Source: a bacterium
GTDB taxonomy: Bacteria; Pseudomonadota; Alphaproteobacteria; Rs-D84
Assembly (NCBI GenBank): GCA_014803525.1
Contig: JAAVBP010000004.1
Location: 121,369 to 185,368, forward strand
DNA: 64,000 nucleotides
Reading direction: 5' to 3'
Within the stretch, counting starts at the first letter, position 1, and the number at the start of each line of letters is the position of its first letter. Made by a program: the position numbers and the translations under genes. The notes under the pieces were generated by a model. The model worked only from the letters and a program-made list of their open reading frames with translations, was not told the origin of the DNA and made no database searches. Shown piece by piece: positions 3,190 through 48,310 of this stretch.

Positions 3190-4212
3190 TTTCATATTTA
3201 TTTCAAAAAACTCTTCAATCTTATCAAACGGAATCACATCCATATTGTCGTATAAATCAACATGATTTGCGCCCGGGATAATTACCAGTTCTTTGTTATC
3301 CCCTTTTAGCTTTTTAAACGCATCTTCACTGAAATAACGACTGTGCGCGTTTTCCCCATGCAGCATTAAAACAGGGCTGCGAATCTCACCGATGTATGTC
3401 AACAATGGCATATTCATAAACGGCAGATTTGACGTCACACGCCAACCATCGTTTGATGCAACCGAACGCTTATGATAACCACGCGGCGTTTTATAATATG
3501 CCCAATAATCTTTCATAAATTGAGGAGCATCATCATCCACCTTGTCCGGCAAACCGCCCGCGAACGCAGGCGTCCCGTTTTTAGCATCCGCTGTACGTTG
3601 CGCATTCATGGCCACGCGCGCCGCATAACGGGCATCAGCGTTATTATCCGCATCAAAGTATCCGTTGGCGTTAACACGCGACATATCATACATGGTCGAT
3701 GTCACAACCGCACGAATACGCGGATCATTTGCCGCCGCATTCAATCCCATTCCGCCAAATCCACAAATTCCAATAATTCCGATTTTGTTTTCATCAACAT
3801 CGCTACGGGTTGTTAAATAATCAACCGCCGCAGAAAAATCTTCGGTATTGATATCAGGCGACGCAACATTACGCGGCGTGCCCCCGGAATCACCCGTATA
3901 AGATGCATCAAACGCCAATGCCACAAAACCACGCGATGCCATTTCCTGTGCATATCGACCGGACACCTGCTCTTTGACCGCACCAAACGGGCCGGACACT
4001 GCAATTGCCGGCAATGGTTCGACACCGCGATTTTTCGGCATATACAGGTCACCAGCCAATTCTATACCATAACGATTTTTAAAATGAACACGCGTCACAC
4101 TGACATCTGGATTTTTGGCAAATGTTTTGTCCCATGCGCGCCCGCGCCAAATAAACACCGCCGCCACAATGACAATCAATGCAACAGCAATAACTGATAT
4201 TGTTTTTATCAT
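3187..4212 (-). CDS. Dienelactone-hydrolase-family alpha/beta hydrolase, membrane anchored
   Basis: N-terminal TM helix; nucleophile-elbow-like GICGFGG (Cys nucleophile as in DLH family); downstream His in ...PGANHVD; RBS AAAAAGGAGAAAG. Confidence 0.55.
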   Translation of the reverse strand: MIKTISVIAVALIVIVAAVFIWRGRAWDKTFAKNPDVSVTRVHFKNRYGIELAGDLYMPKNRGVEPLPAIAVSGPFGAVKEQVSGRYAQEMASRGFVALAFDASYTGDSGGTPRNVASPDINTEDFSAAVDYLTTRSDVDENKIGIIGICGFGGMGLNAAANDPRIRAVVTSTMYDMSRVNANGYFDADNNADARYAARVAMNAQRTADAKNGTPAFAGGLPDKVDDDAPQFMKDYWAYYKTPRGYHKRSVASNDGWRVTSNLPFMNMPLLTYIGEIRSPVLMLHGENAHSRYFSEDAFKKLKGDNKELVIIPGANHVDLYDNMDVIPFDKIEEFFEINMK

Positions 4213-4347
4213 ACTTTCTCCTTTTTATGGAACATAATATAAACCATAGAGCTAACTCCAACACAAGTTATTTTTTATAACAGAATCCATTCCTGTATTT
4301 TGCAACGAAAAATTATGGCACCATAGGCATATAAAAGGAGACATCAC

Positions 4348-4647
4348 ATGCCATCATTCGGTGATATAAATACGGTATACAATCCAACAAAAAAATTAAA
4401 CAAAGAAGAGATCATTCGCGCCCTGCAATTCGGCATTGCATCAGAATACGAAACTATACAGATATATCAGCAAATCATGGCCAGCACAGATAATGATGCA
4501 GTAAAAACAGTACTGACCGATTTAACAAACGACGAAATGCACCATGCGGGCGCACTGTTGAAATTGATTCATATATTGGCGCCGGACGTTGCCGCCCAAT
4601 ATGAGCACGGCGCAGATAAAGTTCTAACGGAACTGGGGATAAAATAA
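4348..4647 (+). CDS. Small ferritin-like / rubrerythrin-like protein (possible EncFtn-like)
   Basis: 99 aa; E-x-x-E and E-x-x-H (NDEMHH) carboxylate/His spacing typical of small diiron ferritin-like proteins; RBS AAAAGGAG. Confidence 0.35.
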   Translation: MPSFGDINTVYNPTKKLNKEEIIRALQFGIASEYETIQIYQQIMASTDNDAVKTVLTDLTNDEMHHAGALLKLIHILAPDVAAQYEHGADKVLTELGIK

Positions 4648-4654
4648 ATAAAAA

Positions 4655-4730
4655 ACGCCGGTAAAACCGGCATTTTTCATTTCTGGTGGGAGTGGGTGAA
4701 CAATTTTCTAGCCATTGACTTCCCTAAAGC
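4655..4730. repeat. Terminator hairpin fused to a tRNA-Tyr 3'-end fragment (copy 1)
   Basis: AACGCCGGTAAAACCGGCATTTT hairpin followed by TGGTGGGAGTGG.. and AACAATTTTCTAGC; about 85% identical to the copy at 5708-5790; TGGTGGGAGTGG matches the 3' acceptor end of the tRNA-Tyr at 19036. Confidence 0.6.
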
Positions 4731-4732
4731 TC

Positions 4733-5113
4733 TTACCGAGAAATTTGACGTAAATATTCGCTTCTAATATTATCTATTCTGTTATGCAGTTTTTTCTCCG
4801 CATTCAGCATTCTTTGAGCAAACACCAACGCAGCAATAAATTGAGCCCCAAGAAACGCAAAATACCAATAACTATCGCTAACATCTCGTGTTTCACAACA
4901 TTTTGCCATAGTATATATCCCAGCCGCAAGATTGACTACCAGGTCACCCGCAAAAACAAATCCCCACGGCTTAACCGGAATTGTCGCACGACTATACAAT
5001 TTACGCAGTTCTTTATCTTGTTCCGGTGTCAGTTTCAGACCAGACACCACATCATCATATTTCTGGGCAATAAAATTTTTCTCAAAATTAGTTTGCTGTT
5101 TTTTATTTTGCAT
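4733..5113 (-). CDS. Hypothetical small membrane protein
   Basis: 126 aa ORF with a hydrophobic stretch (FVFAGDLVVNLAAGIY... FLGAQFIAALVFA) and an RBS; lies between the two terminator/tRNA-fragment modules. Confidence 0.4.
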   Translation of the reverse strand: MQNKKQQTNFEKNFIAQKYDDVVSGLKLTPEQDKELRKLYSRATIPVKPWGFVFAGDLVVNLAAGIYTMAKCCETRDVSDSYWYFAFLGAQFIAALVFAQRMLNAEKKLHNRIDNIRSEYLRQISR

Positions 5114-5204
5114 ACTTTTTTCCCTTTATATCAAGAAACAGAGTACACCAACCGTCATACATGTCAAACAAAAAAACATGACACTAAGTTCCCCTCATGC
5201 AAGA

Positions 5205-5705
5205 GATGTGTCGCAATATGGTGGCTGATTCCCTAGGCGCCACGCGCCTGTGGGGCACTCGTTAGCACTCAAACTTCGCCCTGCTCGTTTTCGTTTACTC
5301 GTAGTCGAACCTGCGACATACATCGCATGGTTCAAATCCAAAAGACACAACCGACCGTGGCTGGATTCGCTCGGACTGACATCCTGCGCGGCAGTCGTAT
5401 CGTTTGCTATCGCAAACTCCCAATCGCTAACGCTCTTGGACTCCTTGTCGAACCAGCTGTTTGCGTTCCGCAAACTTCACCGCTGCCTCTCATCTGCCCA
5501 TCCCAAACCAAAACAAAAACCGACCATTCGGTCGGTTTGTGTTTTGGTGGGAGTGGCTGATTCCCTCGCCCGTCGCACTTTGTGCGCCGCGGCTGTGGGG
5601 CACTTGTACGGCGCGAACGGCGCATACGCTTGTTCTTGCCGACAGCGTAGTCGAACCTGTGACATACGTCACATGACTCAAATCCAAAAGCCACGACCGA
5701 CAGAA
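5205..5705. repeat. Two degenerate tandem units of about 330 bp carrying tRNA-Tyr 3'-end-like fragments
   Basis: Unit 1 at about 5218-5545 and unit 2 at about 5555-5705 share GTGGCTGATTCCCT...CTGTGGGGCACT...GTAGTCGAACCTG[C/T]GACATAC...CAAATCCAAAAG; fragments GTGGCTGGATTCG at 5380 and TGGTGGGAGTGGCTG at 5546 match the 19036-19060 tRNA-Tyr 3' end. The overlapping small ORFs are judged spurious. Confidence 0.55.
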
Positions 5706-5707
5706 AT

Positions 5708-5790
5708 AAAAACGCCGGTTAAACCGGCATTTTTATTTCTGGTGGGAGTCAATGAACAATTTTCTAGCTACGGATTTCCTTGGATTCCTT
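5708..5790. repeat. Terminator hairpin fused to a tRNA-Tyr 3'-end fragment (copy 2); candidate distal att of the island
   Basis: AACGCCGGTTAAACCGGCATTTTTATTTCTGGTGGGAGTcaATGAACAATTTTCTAGC; direct repeat of the tRNA-Tyr 3' end lying 13.3 kb from the intact tRNA. Confidence 0.55.
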
Positions 5791-5864
5791 AGCATTGGAC
5801 ACGATATAAAACAATTTAAGCAGATAATATCCATACAAAACACAAAATAAAAACACTATCAGCT

Positions 5865-6770
5865 TCACATTTGTTCTTTAGTACCCACAGGGACTCTCTT
5901 TGTTATTTCACAAAAACTATTATCCAGATATTCAATATTATTATCAATTTTCACAAAACAGCCCTTCTCTACTTTTCTAACCAACATATAACACGTATCT
6001 GCTTTACAAACCAGTGTATTTGAAGTATTTATATCGCCTCTTGATTTGGAAAATCCTGCCATAAAAATAAAAATTATAACCCATAAACACTTTGAGATAT
6101 TTTTTACCGATATATTTGGAACAAAGGAATCAAAAAGTAAAAATGCAAAAAACATAGCTACAAATATTACAGTCGTCCAAAAACCACATGTCATTCGCTC
6201 TATAATAATTGCTGACACTAAAAGAGCTAATACCAACAACATCACAAAAACTATCAAAAGGTAATTTAATAGAGCATTCATAACACCTTTCTTTATTGCA
6301 CACTTCACTTTCAATATAGCAGTCGAAAGTTTTTCTTGTTTCTTTAAAAGCCCCTTCATTCCTCTACAACATTTTCCTGAACCAAATAGCTTTTTGGTAT
6401 GTGATGATATTTTATATGTCTTATAGCAAGCCTCAATAAACTTTGGCAAAACCCTTATTATATCAATTAGCCTACGTGTTGTATTCTTAAAATCTTTTAC
6501 AGCAGCAACAATAATATTATCATTGTTAATTGGTATAAAGGGGAATAAGAAACCAATAAGATAAGCCAACTCAAGGAACATACCCGGCATAGTACCTGCA
6601 TAATAGTCACCAACTGTAAGGAATTCAATGTATTGAACGTTAATAAATCTGAAATACCCCAAATTGAACCATACAGCAACTAAAATCAATATACCAATCA
6701 ACGTTAAATAATATTGCTGAATCCATTTTAGAGAAAACACTTCTGTTTTATCATTTGATTTTTTAGACAT
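5865..6770 (-). CDS. Hypothetical polytopic membrane protein (very AT-rich, island cargo)
   Basis: Multiple hydrophobic helices; start chosen at MSKKSND with RBS AAGGGG; Lys/Ile/Asn-rich composition atypical of the flanking core. Confidence 0.5.
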   Translation of the reverse strand: MSKKSNDKTEVFSLKWIQQYYLTLIGILILVAVWFNLGYFRFINVQYIEFLTVGDYYAGTMPGMFLELAYLIGFLFPFIPINNDNIIVAAVKDFKNTTRRLIDIIRVLPKFIEACYKTYKISSHTKKLFGSGKCCRGMKGLLKKQEKLSTAILKVKCAIKKGVMNALLNYLLIVFVMLLVLALLVSAIIIERMTCGFWTTVIFVAMFFAFLLFDSFVPNISVKNISKCLWVIIFIFMAGFSKSRGDINTSNTLVCKADTCYMLVRKVEKGCFVKIDNNIEYLDNSFCEITKRVPVGTKEQM

Positions 6771-7021
6771 TTGATTACCCCTTATGTGCATAATATATAA
6801 AAAATGATACGCATACATTCCTTATTGTCAACCTCCCCCTAGGCCCAACACCCGACATCATAGAACCGAGCATAGTAAAGACGCCCCCCTAAACCTACTG
6901 CCCCAAAAGGCAATATGTCACAGATTTACTGATACAAGGTTGTAATGGATAGGCCTTTACGCGCGAAGCCAATCCGTCACCACCGCAAATTTCAATAGGA
7001 ATACTTTTTTAACGCTTTTTG

Positions 7022-7049
7022 TTGACATCAGTTGTTTTGATGATAGAAT
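7022..7049 (+). promoter_or_regulatory. Sigma70-like promoter (TTGACA-N16-TAGAAT) oriented toward the alpA-like and MTase genes
   Basis: Near-consensus -35 TTGACA at 7022 and -10 TAGAAT at 7044 with a 16-nt spacer. Confidence 0.45.
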
Positions 7050-7251
7050 GATAAACATCAAAATAATTGAAAGATATCTATCTAACTCAATTATTTATCT
7101 AAATTGCGAATAGCTTTTATCAACATCGCAATTTAATTTATGAATTTCTTAAATTTTTAAATTTACTGATACTCTCTCTGTTCTGGACAGGGCTTTTTTT
7201 ACACTTTTTTACTTAAAACTACAAATTTCCAACCAATCAACCAACCAAGAA

Positions 7252-7430
7252 AAACGGGCATTTTTTGCCCTTTTTTCATACACAAAAAAGGAGATATGCC
7301 ATGCAAAAAATCCATTCACCGCCATTATTTATCCTTTTTATTTAAATTTTAACTAACCAATTTTTCTCAATCAACCAAGGGTCGTGCTTTTGCACGGCCC
7401 TTTTTTCATACCTAAAAGGACACATTATGG
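7252..7430 (+). repeat. Duplicated hairpin-plus-leader module (GC hairpin, TTTTTTCATAC, AAAAGGAG, ATG)
   Basis: 7252-7310 GGGCATTTTTTGCCCTTTTTTCATACACAAAAAAGGAGATATGCCATG and 7375-7430 GGGTCGTGCTTTTGCACGGCCCTTTTTTCATACCTAAAAGGACACATTATG; the second copy drives the 84-aa ORF. Confidence 0.4.
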
Positions 7431-7681
7431 CAACATTTACTATTAAACCCGCAACATCTACAACCCCAAAACAAGTTATCATAATCGGAGCAGAAGATAT
7501 GTTATCGCCTTCGGAAGTAGTGCGTATCGTTGGCGTATCTCTCAAAACATTACGCAAATGGCGGGAACTTCGTATCAATCTGGCTTTTTGCGAATGCGAC
7601 CGCTCCGCAAAATATCCGGCAAGCGCAATAAATGAATATCTGGCAGCGACATTTTGTTCGGTAATAATCAAAAAAGCATAA
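7427..7681 (+). CDS. AlpA/Xis-family HTH protein (putative excisionase or regulator)
   Basis: MLSPSEVVRIVGVSLKTLRKWRE resembles the AlpA/MerR-type HTH_17 excisionase motif; located in the island. Confidence 0.45.
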   Translation: MATFTIKPATSTTPKQVIIIGAEDMLSPSEVVRIVGVSLKTLRKWRELRINLAFCECDRSAKYPASAINEYLAATFCSVIIKKA

Positions 7682-8011
7682 TAAGAGCAGAAAAAATAAA
7701 GGGCAAGACCCTATTTTTTTATTTTCGGGGCACGAAATCCCCCAAAGTTCACAAAGTCCACAAAGTAAACCAAATCCCACACCACATTGCAAATCTAGTC
7801 AGTTATTATTTCTACGACGCGAAACAAAGGAGACGCAAACAAATGAATAGCAGTTAAACAACAAACCAATACAGCACAACGACTAATCAGTCTATGCGCT
7901 GATAAAACAAGAAATTTTAACCGTAAAACTCTCAGCTTGCAATCGCGGAATGCGATTCCTGTACGGGGATTTTTACACCTAAAAAGTCCAAAAATAACAA
8001 AGGAGAAAACA

Positions 8012-27260: not shown

Positions 27261-29039
27261 ATGAATCTGTTTGATTCTTCTTTCTTGTGTTTGGATATCG
27301 GCCGATCCGGCGTTCGCGGCGCGGCCCATCGCGTACGCAGTGCGCGCATTGATAAATCCGCCGTTTATTCTTTTGACAGCACAGACACCGTGTATGCATT
27401 AAAGTCTGTGATTGACGAATTGGAAAAACAAATCGGGGCGCATTTTGATACAGCATATGTAACCGGTGATTTTGGACCGGCCGAATTCAATATGACGGTA
27501 AAAAGTATCAATTGGGGCGCGGAACATAAAATCAGCACCGCCGACGTACGCAATCTGATATCCCAGATAACACCGCCAACCGGCATGTTTCCAATGCATA
27601 TAATTCCGCTACGTTACGACACACCGACGGCCCGAAACATTTTATCCCCAATCGGACATACAGACAACGCACTGGTATCCGCATTCAGCGCAATATTTTA
27701 CGACCAACCCAGAATGGACGAAATTATGTCCGACATGCGGCGCGCCCATATCCAGTCGTCGGGATTCTTTGACCCGCAATTTTTATTAAGTGCAACACTG
27801 CGCCGACCGCACGAAAACATAATGTTCATAGACTTGGCCGAAAGATTTACAACCGCATCCATATGGACAGACCGCGGTCCCGTTATGTTCAAGCAAATTC
27901 CGGTTGGCGGCGAAAAAATAACACGCGATATCGCAGAAAAAATGCATATAGATATAACGGCGGCAAACAGCATAAAACGTGCAGTTTCAACATTGATTCC
28001 GATGGAAATGGACCGATTTACCCCGGCCGATCCGGCATATGATTTTTCACGTGCGGATATAAACGAAATTATTTTACCGCGCATGCTGGAAATCGCCGCA
28101 CAAATAAAAGACGCCGCAACAACGGCGATCGGAAAATACAGACCGGTAAAAATAATGCTGACCGGGGGCGGCGCAGAAATAGATGGCGCAACAGACTTTT
28201 TTGAAAACATCTTTGCAATTCCAACAACAAAATTACCGTATGACGCAACGGCACGGGCGTTGGCGGCGTATGTATGGAAACTGCAATCACCACGCGTTGC
28301 CGCCGCACACGCCCGCCAAGAACGATGGGCACGTCGCACAAATTGGATTCGGCGCCGGTTTAATATAAAACGACGTCCACGCGCACGCTTTATCCCCATT
28401 ATGCCCAGTACATTATGCTTTGACATGCGACGCGATGACACATATTCACTGTTTAAATCCGGCGGCATATCAATGATTCATGTAGATATAATGGATGGTT
28501 TTTACGTTGACCGTGTCGCCGGCAGTATCGCCGAATTAAAACAAATTCGCGCACATACGGACGCACATCTGCACGTGCATTTAATGACGGAAAGTCCATC
28601 CGTTTGGGCCGCCGACGCAATTGCCGCCGGCGCAGATACCGTGATCGTATCAACCAATACATCCGGCCTGCGCGCGGCCCTGCGCGAGATTCGGGCGGCC
28701 GGTCGCCGATGCGGCGTGGCATTGAACCCGGATTCCGATGTATCAATATTAAAACCAATTTTGCGCGATGTTGATGAAATAATGGTTATGTCGGTTACCC
28801 CCGGTGCGGCGGGACAAAAATTTGATACCGACGCATTAAAGAAAATCGCAATACTGGACGCGACACGTAAAAAATATGGATTAAAGTATAAAATCACTGT
28901 TGATGGCGGAATAAATGCCGACACATCGAACCCATGCTGGACCGCAGGCGCGGACGCATTGGTGTCTGGATCATATCTGGCGCGCGCATCTGATTTTCCA
29001 TTGGCGGTACAAAGCCTGTTGCGGCACCCGGAAAAATAA
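27261..29039 (+). CDS. ftsA: FtsA-like actin-fold protein fused in-frame to ribulose-phosphate 3-epimerase (Rpe)
   Basis: N-terminal 370 aa: FtsA-like (LCLDIGRSGVR..., IMLTGGGAEIDGATDFFENIFAIP). C-terminal 215 aa: Rpe motifs (PSTLCFD...IHVDIMDGFYV, HLHVHLMTE, MVMSVTPG, VDGGIN). No stop codon between the two parts. Confidence 0.6.
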   Translation: MNLFDSSFLCLDIGRSGVRGAAHRVRSARIDKSAVYSFDSTDTVYALKSVIDELEKQIGAHFDTAYVTGDFGPAEFNMTVKSINWGAEHKISTADVRNLISQITPPTGMFPMHIIPLRYDTPTARNILSPIGHTDNALVSAFSAIFYDQPRMDEIMSDMRRAHIQSSGFFDPQFLLSATLRRPHENIMFIDLAERFTTASIWTDRGPVMFKQIPVGGEKITRDIAEKMHIDITAANSIKRAVSTLIPMEMDRFTPADPAYDFSRADINEIILPRMLEIAAQIKDAATTAIGKYRPVKIMLTGGGAEIDGATDFFENIFAIPTTKLPYDATARALAAYVWKLQSPRVAAAHARQERWARRTNWIRRRFNIKRRPRARFIPIMPSTLCFDMRRDDTYSLFKSGGISMIHVDIMDGFYVDRVAGSIAELKQIRAHTDAHLHVHLMTESPSVWAADAIAAGADTVIVSTNTSGLRAALREIRAAGRRCGVALNPDSDVSILKPILRDVDEIMVMSVTPGAAGQKFDTDALKKIAILDATRKKYGLKYKITVDGGINADTSNPCWTAGADALVSGSYLARASDFPLAVQSLLRHPEK

Positions 29040-44996: not shown

Positions 44997-45872
44997 TTAC
45001 CAATATAACCCGCGCAGTTTCTGACGCCATGCGCGCACCGGTATAATCGCGGCGATTACGCGCGTTATACTGCGCATTATATATGAAAACCTGTTGTTCG
45101 GAATCTTTTTATCTGTCGTCCCACGCAGCCATTTTGTACCACCGTATTTTGGTGTGTTCTTTTCGCGACTGATAATCTTTACCATAACCGCATCACCCGG
45201 CGCCAAGTGTTTCAGTTTATGTTCCGGATAACCATACGCCCGCCCACAGAGCAAGAAATCACGCGTCGCCAGATATGCATTCAGGTGACTTTCGTCATCG
45301 ACAACGGCATTGATTCCGTTTTTAATATCCGTCTGAACATTTTTGGCAAGTGCCCCACACATTTCCAAAAACGCATCCGCGGTACCGCCGTTGAACGCGC
45401 CGCATACATAATGACGCCCGGTACCGAACGGCACATATGCGGTGGATTCCGGTCTTCTTTCAAATGGGAATACATCTGGCGTATCACGCCAGATGTCGCC
45501 ATGGCGACCGGGATGCAAACTGGCGCACAATCCGCCGTCCCATTCACGCGGCGCAATTTCGGATAAATCTGTATCATTTATAAATTTGAAATTCGCATTG
45601 AAAAAGAACAAATAATCAAATTTAGACAATTCTTTTTTATGCGCATAAAACATTTCAAACCGCAGCAGACTGTCATACGGCCAACCGCGCTTTTGGGCCG
45701 GAATAATGGTCACATTCGGCATATCCATCGCCGGCGTTGGATTATCGGTCCAGATAAAATAATGTTTATCCGCATGCAGCAAATGTTTTTCACAGGATTC
45801 ATAAAATTCATCCCAAAACACCGTATAACGCCCCAGCGCAATGTATAAAATTCCAACCTTTGCCATAACCAT
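44997..45872 (-). CDS. Glycosyltransferase family 6 (ABO / alpha-1,3-GalT-like), bacterial NxN type
   Basis: ERRPESTAYVPFGTGRHYVCGAFNGGTADAF...DDESHLNAY parallels the GT6 ERRxxSAAYIPFGxGDFYYxGxxFGGT...WHDESHLNKY block; FNANF replaces the eukaryotic DVD motif, as in Bacteroides GT6; RBS AGGGGGAT. Confidence 0.7.
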   Translation of the reverse strand: MVMAKVGILYIALGRYTVFWDEFYESCEKHLLHADKHYFIWTDNPTPAMDMPNVTIIPAQKRGWPYDSLLRFEMFYAHKKELSKFDYLFFFNANFKFINDTDLSEIAPREWDGGLCASLHPGRHGDIWRDTPDVFPFERRPESTAYVPFGTGRHYVCGAFNGGTADAFLEMCGALAKNVQTDIKNGINAVVDDESHLNAYLATRDFLLCGRAYGYPEHKLKHLAPGDAVMVKIISREKNTPKYGGTKWLRGTTDKKIPNNRFSYIMRSITRVIAAIIPVRAWRQKLRGLYW

Positions 45873-45888
45873 ATCCCCCTGATTGTTT

Positions 45889-46659
45889 TTATTTTAATAC
45901 CAATGCCAGACCACAATGATCCGTCGGCTTTTCGGCCAGGCGCGGTGCCATATCAATCTCGCACGATTTAACCATTTTGGCCGCCGCACGATTGCACAGG
46001 AAATAATCCAGGCGCAGTCCCTGTTTATTTCCAACCGTATCACGACCACGATATCCATACCACGTGTAATCTATTTCATCCGGGTGCAATTCGCGCCATG
46101 CATCCATCCACCCCGACGCCAACCAGTCGCGCATGATCGCACGCGCCTGGGGCGCGGCAATTGCGATACCAACATAGTTTGCAGGTTTCCATACATCACG
46201 ATCTTCGATTGCAACGTTAAAGTCACCACCAATAATAACAGGTTCTTCTGAATCCAGATACATGGATATGTAATTTGTAAATGCCTGCATCCATTCCAAT
46301 TTGTATGGGAACTTTGGTGAATCCACCGTATCGCCATTTGGCATATAAGTATTTATTACGCGAACACGCCCATCAATCACGCATTCGATAAATCGCGCGT
46401 TCACATCGGCGTATCCCGGCATGCCGCGTGTGACATCTTCGATTGAATATTTTGAAAATATCGCAACCCCGTTCCAGCTTTTTTGGCCAAACACCTTGAT
46501 ATTATAACCATATTCATCAAACAGGTTATGCGGGAACACCGCGTCTTCGACTTTCAGTTCCTGAACCATGATTACGTCGTATTCCGCCCCGCGCAAAATA
46601 TCGATAAAACTTTGCGCATGTGCGCGGATTGAGTTAATGTTAAGTGTTAAAATTTTCAT
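45889..46659 (-). CDS. xthA: Exodeoxyribonuclease III (XthA, AP endonuclease)
   Basis: MKILTLNINSIRAH...VQELK N-terminus and C-terminal ...DHCGLALVLK typical of ExoIII/APE1. Confidence 0.85.
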   Translation of the reverse strand: MKILTLNINSIRAHAQSFIDILRGAEYDVIMVQELKVEDAVFPHNLFDEYGYNIKVFGQKSWNGVAIFSKYSIEDVTRGMPGYADVNARFIECVIDGRVRVINTYMPNGDTVDSPKFPYKLEWMQAFTNYISMYLDSEEPVIIGGDFNVAIEDRDVWKPANYVGIAIAAPQARAIMRDWLASGWMDAWRELHPDEIDYTWYGYRGRDTVGNKQGLRLDYFLCNRAAAKMVKSCEIDMAPRLAEKPTDHCGLALVLK

Positions 46660-46729
46660 ATTTGCAATATTCCTTTCTCAGGATTATAATACTGCCTGTC
46701 CAATATAAAAACAACAAGGAATTTTTATT

Positions 46730-48310
46730 ATGAACATGTATCAATTACTGGAAAGTGCTGTTGCAAAGTGGCCGGATAATTTATTTCTGGTCCGCGAAGG
46801 CGTAACTTTCTCAGGATTTATTGAATTGGTTAAACGGCGTGCGGCCGAATTGCATGCGGCCGGCGTACGACGTGGTGACATTGTGGGTGTTCTGTCACAT
46901 AATATCCCGCAAATGCCGACAACAATGTTTGCGGTATGGTATCTGGGCGGAACGGTATTATTGCTGGATACCAATTTAACACCATATGAATATGACAATA
47001 TGACATCAACCACAGACTGTCATATCGTGGCGGCGGAAAAGTCTTTCTTTTACAAGACCAAGAAATTTAAATTCTTTGACATCACCCAAGAAGATGGCAA
47101 GCCCAATGGTCGTCTGAAACCGGCGCCATTGGAACCATTGGATGTTGCGACATTGTCATTTACATCGGGTTCAACGGGCAAGCCCAAGGTTGTGCCGCTG
47201 ACACACTATAATTTAACATCATGCGCCACATCACTGGAAGATATGCATGATTATATCAAGGCCGGCGATATAATGTACGGATTTTTACCCCTGTACCATA
47301 TATATGGATTTGCGGTGGAAATTTTGGCGACATTGCACTATGGCGCGGGCGTATTGTTACAGCCAACCGTTAACCCGAAAGAAATCATGGCGGATTTCCA
47401 GAAATATCGCCCCCAGGCAATTCCGGCCGTCCCCCGCTTGTTTGAGGTTATTCGCAACCGCATCATCGACACCCTGAAAGGCAAACATATTTGGTGGTTG
47501 GCATCACTGGTGCTGAAATACGGTAAAACGTTGAACAAGATTGGTCTTGGATTTTTGGTCAGCAAGGTTCAAAAACCTGTGCGTGAAATATTTGGCGGAC
47601 GCGTATCGTTGCTGATCGCGGGTGGCGCGGCCACCAAGCCCGAGGTTGAAACATTCTATGAACGCCTGGGCATGCGCTTTATCCAGGGATATGGTCTGAC
47701 CGAAACAGTTGGCCCGATTTGTATATCCAAGCCACTGAAAAAACGTGAAGCGTTTGCATTTGGTGCGCCGACATCGAACAACGAATGCGAAATTCGTGAC
47801 ACGAACGAAGATGGCGTTGGTGTTTTGTGGCTGCGCGGCCCCCAGGTGTTCGGCGGTTACCTGAACAACCAGGATGCAAACGAAGTCGTATTTGACGAAC
47901 GCGGATTTTTCAATACCGGTGACATGGTTACAATGGATAAAAACGGGGAATTACACTTTGCCGGCCGTAAAAAGCAGGTTATCGTTCTGGATTCCGGTAA
48001 AAACGTTTATCCCGATGAACTAGAGGCACTGTTTATGAAAATCCCGGGTGTAAACAACGTCGCGGTCTTTGAACATAAGATCAAGGATAAAACCGTCGCA
48101 TACGGCGTATTCAGTGTTGATCCGGATATGACAATGGAAAAATTGGCCGCCGGCGTCGCAGGCGCAAACAAAAAAGTTGCCAGTTATAAATGGGTAACGC
48201 ACTTTGCAATGACGACGGATGAATTACCGACGACCAGCACGCAAAAGATAAAACACCATCTGGTGCGTCAGAATTTAATCGACGGCAAATATCCAACACG
48301 TAAAGAATAA
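46730..48310 (+). CDS. AMP-dependent acyl-CoA synthetase/ligase (long-chain fatty-acid CoA ligase-like)
   Basis: AMP-binding motif SFTSGSTGKPKVV, YGLTET, and hinge/K motifs; 526 aa. Confidence 0.8.
   Translation: MNMYQLLESAVAKWPDNLFLVREGVTFSGFIELVKRRAAELHAAGVRRGDIVGVLSHNIPQMPTTMFAVWYLGGTVLLLDTNLTPYEYDNMTSTTDCHIVAAEKSFFYKTKKFKFFDITQEDGKPNGRLKPAPLEPLDVATLSFTSGSTGKPKVVPLTHYNLTSCATSLEDMHDYIKAGDIMYGFLPLYHIYGFAVEILATLHYGAGVLLQPTVNPKEIMADFQKYRPQAIPAVPRLFEVIRNRIIDTLKGKHIWWLASLVLKYGKTLNKIGLGFLVSKVQKPVREIFGGRVSLLIAGGAATKPEVETFYERLGMRFIQGYGLTETVGPICISKPLKKREAFAFGAPTSNNECEIRDTNEDGVGVLWLRGPQVFGGYLNNQDANEVVFDERGFFNTGDMVTMDKNGELHFAGRKKQVIVLDSGKNVYPDELEALFMKIPGVNNVAVFEHKIKDKTVAYGVFSVDPDMTMEKLAAGVAGANKKVASYKWVTHFAMTTDELPTTSTQKIKHHLVRQNLIDGKYPTRKE

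Follow-up and report, generated by a model that had tools for sequence, protein, structure and literature searches.

A predicted GT6 glycosyltransferase of the bacterial NxN type, with an altered Trp-His site, from an alphaproteobacterium of the Rs-D84 lineage

A 64,000-nucleotide stretch of an alphaproteobacterial genome (GTDB lineage Rs-D84; assembly GCA_014803525.1, contig JAAVBP010000004.1, positions 121,369 to 185,368), referred to here as the window, carries on its minus strand at 44997..45872 an open reading frame (ORF) whose translation resembles the mammalian ABO transferases and alpha-1,3-galactosyltransferase (alpha3GT, GGTA1) of glycosyltransferase family 6 (GT6). The gene raises the question of whether it encodes a working GT6 enzyme and, if so, whether a blood-group-like product may be attributed to it. 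Natural anti-glycan antibodies of vertebrates are primed by ABO-like and alpha-Gal-like antigens, of which bacterial GT6 enzymes are considered one source. As judged from its sequence, the protein is a genuine GT6 glycosyltransferase of an already known bacterial kind, having an NxN motif and a basic-hydrophobic-basic (BHB) C-terminal tail. It is a new member of this known family and is assigned to an uncharacterized, sharply delimited subfamily in which the Trp-His site of the substrate pocket is altered.

Family, fold and catalytic residues

The major data for the family assignment were profile, sequence and structure comparisons. The ORF encodes 291 amino acids from its first ATG, and this numbering is used throughout. 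PF03414 (Glyco_transf_6) was the sole Pfam family matched (E=4.2e-26, 91.9 bits against a gathering cut-off of 25, residues 5-203), and the family profiles pointed to no glycosyltransferase family other than GT6. The best match among PDB sequences was BoGT6a of Bacteroides ovatus (4AYJ; E=6.3e-42, residues 5-250, 35-38% identity), followed by dozens of human ABO chains (E ~2e-23, 26-29% identity), while bovine alpha3GT was matched at E ~1e-14. An earlier sequence-only reading of the same DNA had proposed GT6 from three peptides, ERRPESTAYVPFGTGRHYVCGAFNGGTADAF (residues 138-168), VDDESHLNAY (191-200) and FFFNANFKF (89-97), and had aligned the block formed by the first two by eye with the catalytic core of ABO/GGTA1. 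Both the assignment and the alignment were borne out, the likeness to ABO/GGTA1 at the level of sequence being far beyond chance. The same reading called the enzyme eukaryote-like, which was overstated, as the nearest relatives are bacterial and the composition of the gene is native.

The predicted structure was consistent with these matches. An AlphaFold2 (AF2) model was computed from an alignment of 17 sequences of the clade described below, and a Foldseek comparison to the PDB gave only GT6 structures among the 50 matches listed, with target-normalised TM-scores of 0.80-0.84 for BoGT6a and 0.63-0.70 for GTA, GTB and alpha3GT. The catalytic domain of GT-A fold was placed at residues 5-250 (45123..45860, minus strand), which aligned to residues 2-243 of BoGT6a.

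Individual residues were assigned from HMMER and MAFFT alignments, with roles as published for BoGT6a (PMC3516806, PMC3961637). In the HMMER alignment, FFFNANFKF was found opposite FFFNANLLF of BoGT6a and VCVDVDMEF of the human enzyme, so that the peptide does lie, as had been claimed, at the position of the DVD metal-binding motif. The NxN motif itself, N92-A93-N94 (45591..45599, minus strand), corresponds to N95-A-N97 of BoGT6a and to D211-V-D213 of the human enzyme, and NAN was kept throughout the clade. In BoGT6a, Asn95 touches the ribose and phosphate of uridine diphosphate (UDP), and Lys231 and Arg243 bind the diphosphate instead of a metal (PMC3961637). The counterparts of this cationic pair, K238 and R250 (45123..45161, minus strand), were conserved across the clade and beyond; S235, just upstream, occupies the position of BoGT6a Ile228. 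Given the NxN motif together with this Lys/Arg pair, the protein is presumably independent of divalent metal.

The catalytic loop V191-D192-D193-E194-S195 (45288..45302, minus strand) was located from the alignments and from wider-family sampling. E194 is the counterpart of the catalytic Glu (GTA/GTB Glu303, alpha3GT Glu317, BoGT6a Glu192), the residue that the sequence-only reading had singled out for checking, and D193-E194-S195 was invariant in alignments A1 and A2 and kept in nearly all full-length relatives. The UDP- or sugar-contact residues Y16 (Tyr13 in BoGT6a), W64 (Trp66), D67 (Asn69; Asp in the human enzyme), R71 (Arg73) and A93 (Ala96) were likewise retained, and the set of UDP and galactose contacts formed by Y16, W64, D67, R71, N92 and D193 was conserved.

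Residues 251-291 (45000..45122, minus strand) were assigned to a BHB membrane-association tail from a scan of hydropathy, hydrophobic moment and charge. The tail consists of KK..R, followed by SYIMRSITRVIAAIIPV and then by RAWRQKLR, has a net charge of +8, and is conserved in the clade, with AF2 helices predicted at 261-275 and 280-287. The protein has no N-terminal transmembrane helix or stem, the catalytic domain beginning at residue 5. NXN combined with a C-terminal BHB membrane-association domain is characteristic of the bacterial GT6 enzymes ("clade 3"; Thiyagarajan et al. 2012, PMC3516806), and therefore the overall architecture is the known bacterial one. The C-terminal extension was considered as a possible novelty and rejected, since the crystallized BoGT6a is a C-terminally truncated form ending near residue 246 and the BHB tail has already been published (PMC3516806).

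Comparison with the known enzymes is consistent with this placement. The protein has in common with BoGT6a (PDB 4AYJ, 4AYL, 4CJ8, 4CJB, 4CJC) the GT-A fold, the FFFNAN sequence, the catalytic Glu, the diphosphate-binding Lys/Arg pair and, with respect to native BoGT6a, the BHB tail. With human GTA/GTB and bovine alpha3GT/GGTA1 it shares the family, the fold, the blocks ERR..STAY.P.G.G..Y..G.F.GG and DES.LN.Y, and the Glu303 equivalent. The human enzymes, however, have DVD where the window protein has NxN, and an N-terminal transmembrane helix with a stem where the window protein has the amphipathic C-terminal tail.

The substrate pocket and its clade signature

The subfamily was delimited in an alignment of 199 sequences comprising the query, 120 database matches, 77 ORFs from species-representative genomes, and BoGT6a. 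All of the full-length proteins at least 51% identical to the query, approximately 130, were near-invariant for Y-V-C-G-A (155-159), V-D-D-E-S (191-195) and S235, whereas the other bacterial GT6 sequences of this alignment (no more than 45% identity) had Y-[FYV]-x-G-[GSC], [WYFV]-H-D-E-S, and I, L, Q or M at position 235. The contrast was further examined in 146 GT6 domains drawn, over the entire protein universe, from the next-closest clusters at 50% identity, and none of these domains had VDDES, CGA, or Asp at 192. Position 192 was His in 126 of these domains and acidic in only one (VEDES), and position 191 was Trp in 108. Val191 alone was rejected as a marker of the clade because it was present in 11 of the 146 domains, in nine of them as VHDES. 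On these alignments, the clade-specific changes are the replacement of His by Asp at 192 and the presence of Cys157. One protein of 45% identity (P0091), having YLSGA, VHDES and Ser at the third signature position, looks like an intermediate. A search of the available literature library returned nothing on this subfamily or on GT6 in Rs-D84 or Enterousia.

The altered site coincides with residues of defined function in the characterized enzymes. The Trp-His dyad that precedes D-E-S (W300-H301 in GTA, W189-H190 in BoGT6a) is missing, and V191-D192, near-invariant in the clade, stands in its place, with V191 at the position of the acceptor-stacking Trp and D192 at that of the donor-contacting His. 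In every GT6 structure solved, the conserved Trp (Trp189 of BoGT6a) is stacked against the acceptor (PMC3516806), and in the BoGT6a model His190 touches O6' of the donor sugar (PMC3516806, PMC3961637). The exchange of Trp-His for Val-Asp suggests that recognition of the acceptor, and possibly the fine recognition of the donor, would differ from that of BoGT6a, GTA and GTB, so that specificity should not be transferred by homology.

The donor was approached through the four-residue segment known to govern donor selectivity (PMC3516806). This segment reads A155-G-G-L in BoGT6a and L-G-G-F in GTA, both of which use UDP-GalNAc, and M266-G-A-F in GTB and H280-A-A-I in alpha3GT, both of which use UDP-Gal. 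In the window protein it is C157-G-A-F160, within Y155-V-C-G-A-F-N-G-G163 (45384..45410, minus strand), a stretch invariant in clade alignment A2 and near-invariant clade-wide. Because C-G-A-F resembles the M-G-A-F of GTB, with which it has G-A-F in common, and not the x-G-G-x of GTA and BoGT6a, the donor is by analogy likely to be UDP-Gal rather than UDP-GalNAc.

The acceptor contacts known from BoGT6a were partly kept and partly replaced. Loop 1 begins at H120-P-G-R123 (45504..45515, minus strand), where the alignments place H120 and G122 at His122 (position A1) and Gly124 (position A2) of BoGT6a. These two residues were kept, as were Y155 (Tyr153), E194 (Glu192) and a small residue, S235, at 228 (position A7). 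Replaced were Phe125 by R123, which is followed by a 4-residue insertion relative to BoGT6a, Thr134 by P136, Trp189 by V191, and Trp218 by K219 (Lys or variable in the clade); the hosts also differ, being a Bacteroides and an alphaproteobacterium, respectively. The hydrophobic contacts of BoGT6a to 2'-fucosyllactose involve Phe125 and Trp218, and its Thr134 hydrogen-bonds the acceptor (PMC3516806, PMC3961637). The positions described as separating fucosylated from non-fucosylated acceptors, A1 His, A2 Gly and A7 small, are thus in the state of GTA and BoGT6a, and the Gln/Trp/Trp state of alpha3GT was not seen.

These data bear directly on whether the enzyme is a blood-group-type synthase, that is, whether it extends an H-type acceptor (Fuc-alpha1,2-Gal) on the lipopolysaccharide (LPS) of the bacterium, either by alpha1,3-Gal to a B-like product or by GalNAc to an A-like one, in mimicry of host gut glycans. 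This activity is that of the closest characterized enzyme, BoGT6a, and it would fit the state of H120, G122 and S235, the resemblance of CGAF to the GTB segment, and the hosts of the clade, which are all gut-associated. Several of the acceptor-contact residues, however, are exchanged (Trp189, Phe125, Thr134 and Trp218, as given above), and the clade signature was found in no other GT6 sampled. A genetic argument points the same way. The model for a Gal-specific bacterial GT6 is WbnI of Escherichia coli O86, a blood-group-B galactosyltransferase that uses UDP-Gal and is encoded in an O-antigen cluster together with the GT11 fucosyltransferase WbnK. WbnI was compared by description only, and no partner of the WbnK type was found near the window gene or its annotated relatives. 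Specifically, no GT11 was detected when some 40 larger ORFs of the window (outside 60101..63984, and of at least 150 amino acids) were scanned with Pfam, or among the annotated neighbors, including relatives' glycan islands, in L002, L005, L022, L023, L027, L035 and L037. With the substrate pocket altered in this way, blood-group mimicry is not to be assumed, and a synthase of this type is considered unlikely, although it is the alternative that fared best.

Genomic context and proposed role

The explanation favored, with reasonable though not strong confidence, is that the protein is a membrane-associated, metal-independent, retaining GT6 enzyme that transfers a sugar from a UDP-sugar, likely UDP-Gal, to a lipid-linked surface glycan, and that it represents a discrete subfamily of gut Alphaproteobacteria. 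The BHB tail would tether the enzyme to the inner membrane on its cytoplasmic side, where it would use a UDP-galacto-sugar, most likely UDP-Gal, with no metal cofactor. N92, K238 and R250 would handle the diphosphate and E194 would act in the retaining transfer, and the sugar would be added in alpha linkage to a lipid-linked intermediate, either the outer core of lipooligosaccharide or LPS or an O-antigen-type polysaccharide. The fold, the catalytic and UDP-binding residues, the tail, the purifying selection and the context are taken from the comparisons reported here, and the enzymatic steps are proposed on that basis.

The context was drawn from 39 clade loci, in which neighbors within 6 kb were clustered and the recurrent clusters annotated. 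Four settings were distinguished. In the window and its closest relatives (80-100% identity), the genes run in the order acyl-CoA ligase, exonuclease III, GT6, orf164 and orf186, and glycan genes are absent. In a second setting the neighbors are housekeeping genes (Amidase_3, PrfB, AhpC, HU, AccA/D), sometimes with an APH-like kinase, a GT32 fusion or RgpF nearby. In the third (L022, L023, L032, L037, L046), GT6 lies in a multi-glycosyltransferase island between recA and typA containing two to three GT32-like genes, GT4, GT2, RgpF, GT8, GT92/GT2 and a hexapeptide acetyltransferase. In the fourth, Lgt is followed by GT6. In L002, which belongs to this last setting, the genes after GT6 make up an LPS inner-core/heptose cluster: GT32, GT9 (heptosyltransferase family), GT8, an acyltransferase, HldE, GmhA, GmhB, an epimerase and an MsbA-like ABC transporter. 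In bins from termite gut, several fusions of Caps_synth and GT61 were found upstream, and in L035 a gene of the Wzy_C/O-antigen-ligase family was directly downstream. Overall, in about one-third of the clade loci GT6 was physically linked to genes for the assembly of LPS or surface polysaccharide, in agreement with the published role of bacterial GT6 in O-antigen synthesis (PMC3516806).

The window itself carries a gene for a lipid A 3-O-deacylase of the PagL family at 38433..39032 (plus strand; E=4e-11), from which it is deduced that the organism makes and remodels lipid A.

A target other than LPS, namely capsule or exopolysaccharide, a glycolipid or a protein, would suit the solitary position of GT6 in the window and the Caps_synth and RgpF-type neighbors seen in several relatives. 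It is nevertheless held to be quite improbable, since the heptose/GT9/MsbA-like context of L002 and the Wzy_C ligase-family gene of L035 point to assembly of the LPS type, as does the O-antigen role just cited. The gene for a coupling protein of the VirD4/TraG type at 41540..43804 (plus strand), about 1.2 kb from GT6, suggested a further alternative, that the charged C terminus is a type IV secretion signal and that the enzyme is translocated to modify glycans of a host or partner. The net charge of the tail and the partner dependence proposed for Rs-D84 bacteria (PMC12306168) could be read in this sense, but the BHB tail is general to bacterial GT6 (PMC3516806), the adjacency to virD4 is absent from the other clade loci (in L007, of 88% identity, an autotransporter is found there), and the neighbors at other loci are cytoplasmic glycan-assembly enzymes. 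An effector role is therefore regarded as very improbable.

With regard to its history, the gene is concluded to be long resident and under strong purifying selection, rather than recently imported or a remnant. This was deduced from the ratio of nonsynonymous to synonymous substitution rates (dN/dS), from native composition, and from the absence of a paralogue in the window by tblastn. In pairwise comparisons with five relatives of 80-90% identity, dN/dS was 0.06-0.10, an approximate ratio because dS (~1.1-1.5) is near saturation. The GC content was 0.462 and that of third codon positions (GC3) 0.476, and codon usage was like that of the neighboring gyrB, uvrB, aspS and other genes. A recent origin by horizontal transfer, whether from a eukaryote or from a different phylum, was rejected, as the composition equals that of the neighboring housekeeping genes and the nearest relatives are bacterial. 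An inactive or decaying pseudo-enzyme in a reduced genome, for which the missing Trp-His dyad and a subfamily score under its cut-off could be adduced, is scarcely credible given an ORF intact in ~130 relatives, the low dN/dS, invariant catalytic and UDP-binding residues, and retention of the gene across gut alphaproteobacterial lineages including Candidatus Enterousia, with genomes below 1 Mb.

Several observations weigh against the favored reading of a UDP-Gal-dependent enzyme acting on a lipid-linked surface glycan. The only NCBIfam match was NF041524 ("Gltr_6"; residues 5-221, E=2.3e-67), and its score of 226.9 bits falls under the curated cut-off of 250; by this profile the protein, although GT6, is not a member of the subfamily within the limits set by NCBI, which fits the names of its relatives in the databases ("hypothetical protein" or a generic "glycosyltransferase"). 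The AF2 model was of moderate quality (mean predicted local distance difference test score, pLDDT, 71.4; predicted TM-score, pTM, 0.70), with loops 121-152 and 239-257 below 50; the two coincide with parts that are mobile in BoGT6a, namely its loop 1 and its C-terminal segment. PagL apart, no glycosyltransferase or other glycan gene was found in the Pfam scans of the same set of window ORFs, and because the window locus is without glycan genes, the link to LPS comes from more distant clade members (57-66% identity). Finally, the donor call is an analogy from one residue, Ala159, and the change of His to Asp beside the donor O6 could alter the donor.

Locus, distribution and significance

The GT6 coding sequence occupies 44997..45872 with its stop codon at 44997..44999, and is supported by the ORF list, PF03414, the BoGT6a match and dN/dS. 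A second ATG at 45866 (Met3) would give a product of 289 amino acids. A Shine-Dalgarno-like AGGGGGA (45874..45880, minus strand) is spaced 1 nt from the first ATG and 7 nt from the second, and the closest relatives have 289 amino acids and the N terminus MAKVG. On the strength of this spacing and of the relatives' start, Met3 is probably the true start.

Upstream and co-directional is an Exo_endo_phos gene of the exonuclease III type (45889..46659, minus strand) whose stop lies 16 nt ahead of the GT6 start. Co-transcription of the two genes is possible, and no functional link is drawn from it; their synteny was retained in the closest relatives only. Downstream and also co-directional are orf164 (44417..44911, minus strand) and orf186 (43836..44396, minus strand), neither with a significant Pfam family, which accompany GT6 in the closest lineage only (the window, L007 and L009-L012). 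The product of orf164 is hydrophobic, with membrane segments by eye and a signal-peptide-like N terminus, MKKILALFACLMPAAAFA, also by eye, and that of orf186 ends in ...NCCIE. A promoter and terminator scan of 43700..46900 gave counts not above those of shuffled sequence and was uninformative on operon structure.

Elsewhere in the clade the surroundings of the gene vary. L002, L003 and L004 encode an identical GT6 (P0015), and their downstream DNA differs completely: the LPS-core/heptose cluster in L002 (10864..20864), a Tlde1-domain protein with unknown genes in L003 (5000..14500), and in L004 (3300..11100) a serine recombinase with a HamA and helicase pair that looks like a Hachiman defense system. 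The contigs of L013 and L017 stop only a few hundred bases past GT6. In the P0015 lineage, GT6 adjoins a hypervariable region.

As to distribution, the statement of the sequence-only reading that GT6 is rare in bacteria is outdated. At 50% identity the family comprised 2,149 clusters at E<=1e-3, 1,326 at 1e-10 and 228 at 1e-30, and in this cluster library the clade was represented by one full-length sequence (P0076, 58%), followed by a gap to 46% or less. A pattern scan of one genome per species (the species-representative set) confirmed GT6 relatives at 93 places, ~35 of them in the clade (at least 55% identity). The clade hosts are nearly all uncultured gut Alphaproteobacteria, sampled from humans (Hadza among them), mice, goats, deer, horses and yaks. 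Several of the bins are labeled Candidatus Enterousia, a group listed by NCBI as Alphaproteobacteria incertae sedis; the closest relatives of the window GT6 are labeled only "Alphaproteobacteria bacterium". Enterousia is placed by GTDB in the order Rs-D84, whose members are reported to be fermentative, to have genomes smaller than about 1 Mb and probably to depend on partner cells (PMC12306168).

A clade-type GT6 with the full YVCGA/VDDES signature (57-66% identity) was also observed in bins assigned to Bacteroidota, namely L027, L034, L035, L036 and L039 (termite gut; Bacteroidales, Paludibacter or Bacteroidia; 57-60% identity) and L015 (a "Bacteroides fragilis" cleanbin). These bins have GT32-fusion neighbors in common with the alphaproteobacterial islands, and they reflect either inter-phylum transfer of a glycan module or mis-binned or mislabeled contigs. 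In the wider bacterial family, many proteins have 500-1065 amino acids with the GT6 domain N-terminal, in the middle or C-terminal (P0127, P0136, P0158, P0166, P0168, P0231, and the Prevotella proteins L079, L082 and L083 of ~670 amino acids). These proteins are multi-domain fusions and presumably bifunctional glycosyltransferases, and they are not mentioned in the BoGT6a papers (PMC3516806, PMC3961637).

The remainder of the window is in keeping with a chromosome of the Rs-D84 kind and includes gyrB, uvrB and aspS together with ftsQ/ftsA, RNA-modification genes, a single VirD4-type coupling protein, E and F genes of type II/IV secretion, and the PagL gene. An island of low GC content at 4000..20300 (0.34-0.43 against 0.45-0.50 elsewhere in the window) has the hallmarks of a mobile element: a C5 DNA methylase (7937..9715), a Rep ORF2/G2P-like gene (10127..10702), a 1207-amino-acid ORF with no Pfam match (12686..16309), a resolvase (16497..17096), and a large serine recombinase (17485..19203). 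At its 3' end the recombinase gene overlaps tRNA-Tyr and tRNA-Gly (19036..19221, minus strand), suggestive of integration beside tRNA genes. A 592-amino-acid ORF at 27261..29039 (plus strand) combines an FtsA domain (194-323) with a complete ribulose-phosphate 3-epimerase domain (381-573) and is either a real FtsA-Rpe fusion or the result of a lost stop or frameshift between adjacent genes. The coupling-protein gene lies amid genes for RNA modification, and the nearby ORFs that were scanned include no other vir gene; E (ATPase) and F (platform) genes of the type II secretion/type IV pilus kind (T2SS/T4P) are at 57383..60117 (minus strand). The coupling protein and the E/F genes may bear on the proposed partner-dependent lifestyle.

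As it stands, the protein is an ordinary, correctly recognized member of the GT6 family whose specificity is uncharacterized. It is put forward, as a tentative hypothesis only, that Val-Asp together with Cys157, Ala159 and Ser235 confers a donor-acceptor specificity new to GT6, that the enzyme makes, on another acceptor scaffold, an alpha-linked terminal epitope that is not of the ABO type, and that the gene is retained by gut Alphaproteobacteria, including the reduced-genome, partner-dependent Rs-D84/Enterousia, because this epitope is needed in the gut or on a partner cell. The finding concerns a distinct and strongly conserved branch of GT6 that extends across uncultured gut Alphaproteobacteria of humans, rodents, ruminants and horses, and in the Candidatus Enterousia genomes few dispensable genes survive. 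If the product is a host-like epitope, these little-studied gut symbionts would add to the sources of the antibody-priming antigens named at the outset. If, instead, the altered Trp-His site gives a new specificity, it would widen the catalytic range of GT6 and may provide a useful metal-independent tool for glycan synthesis.

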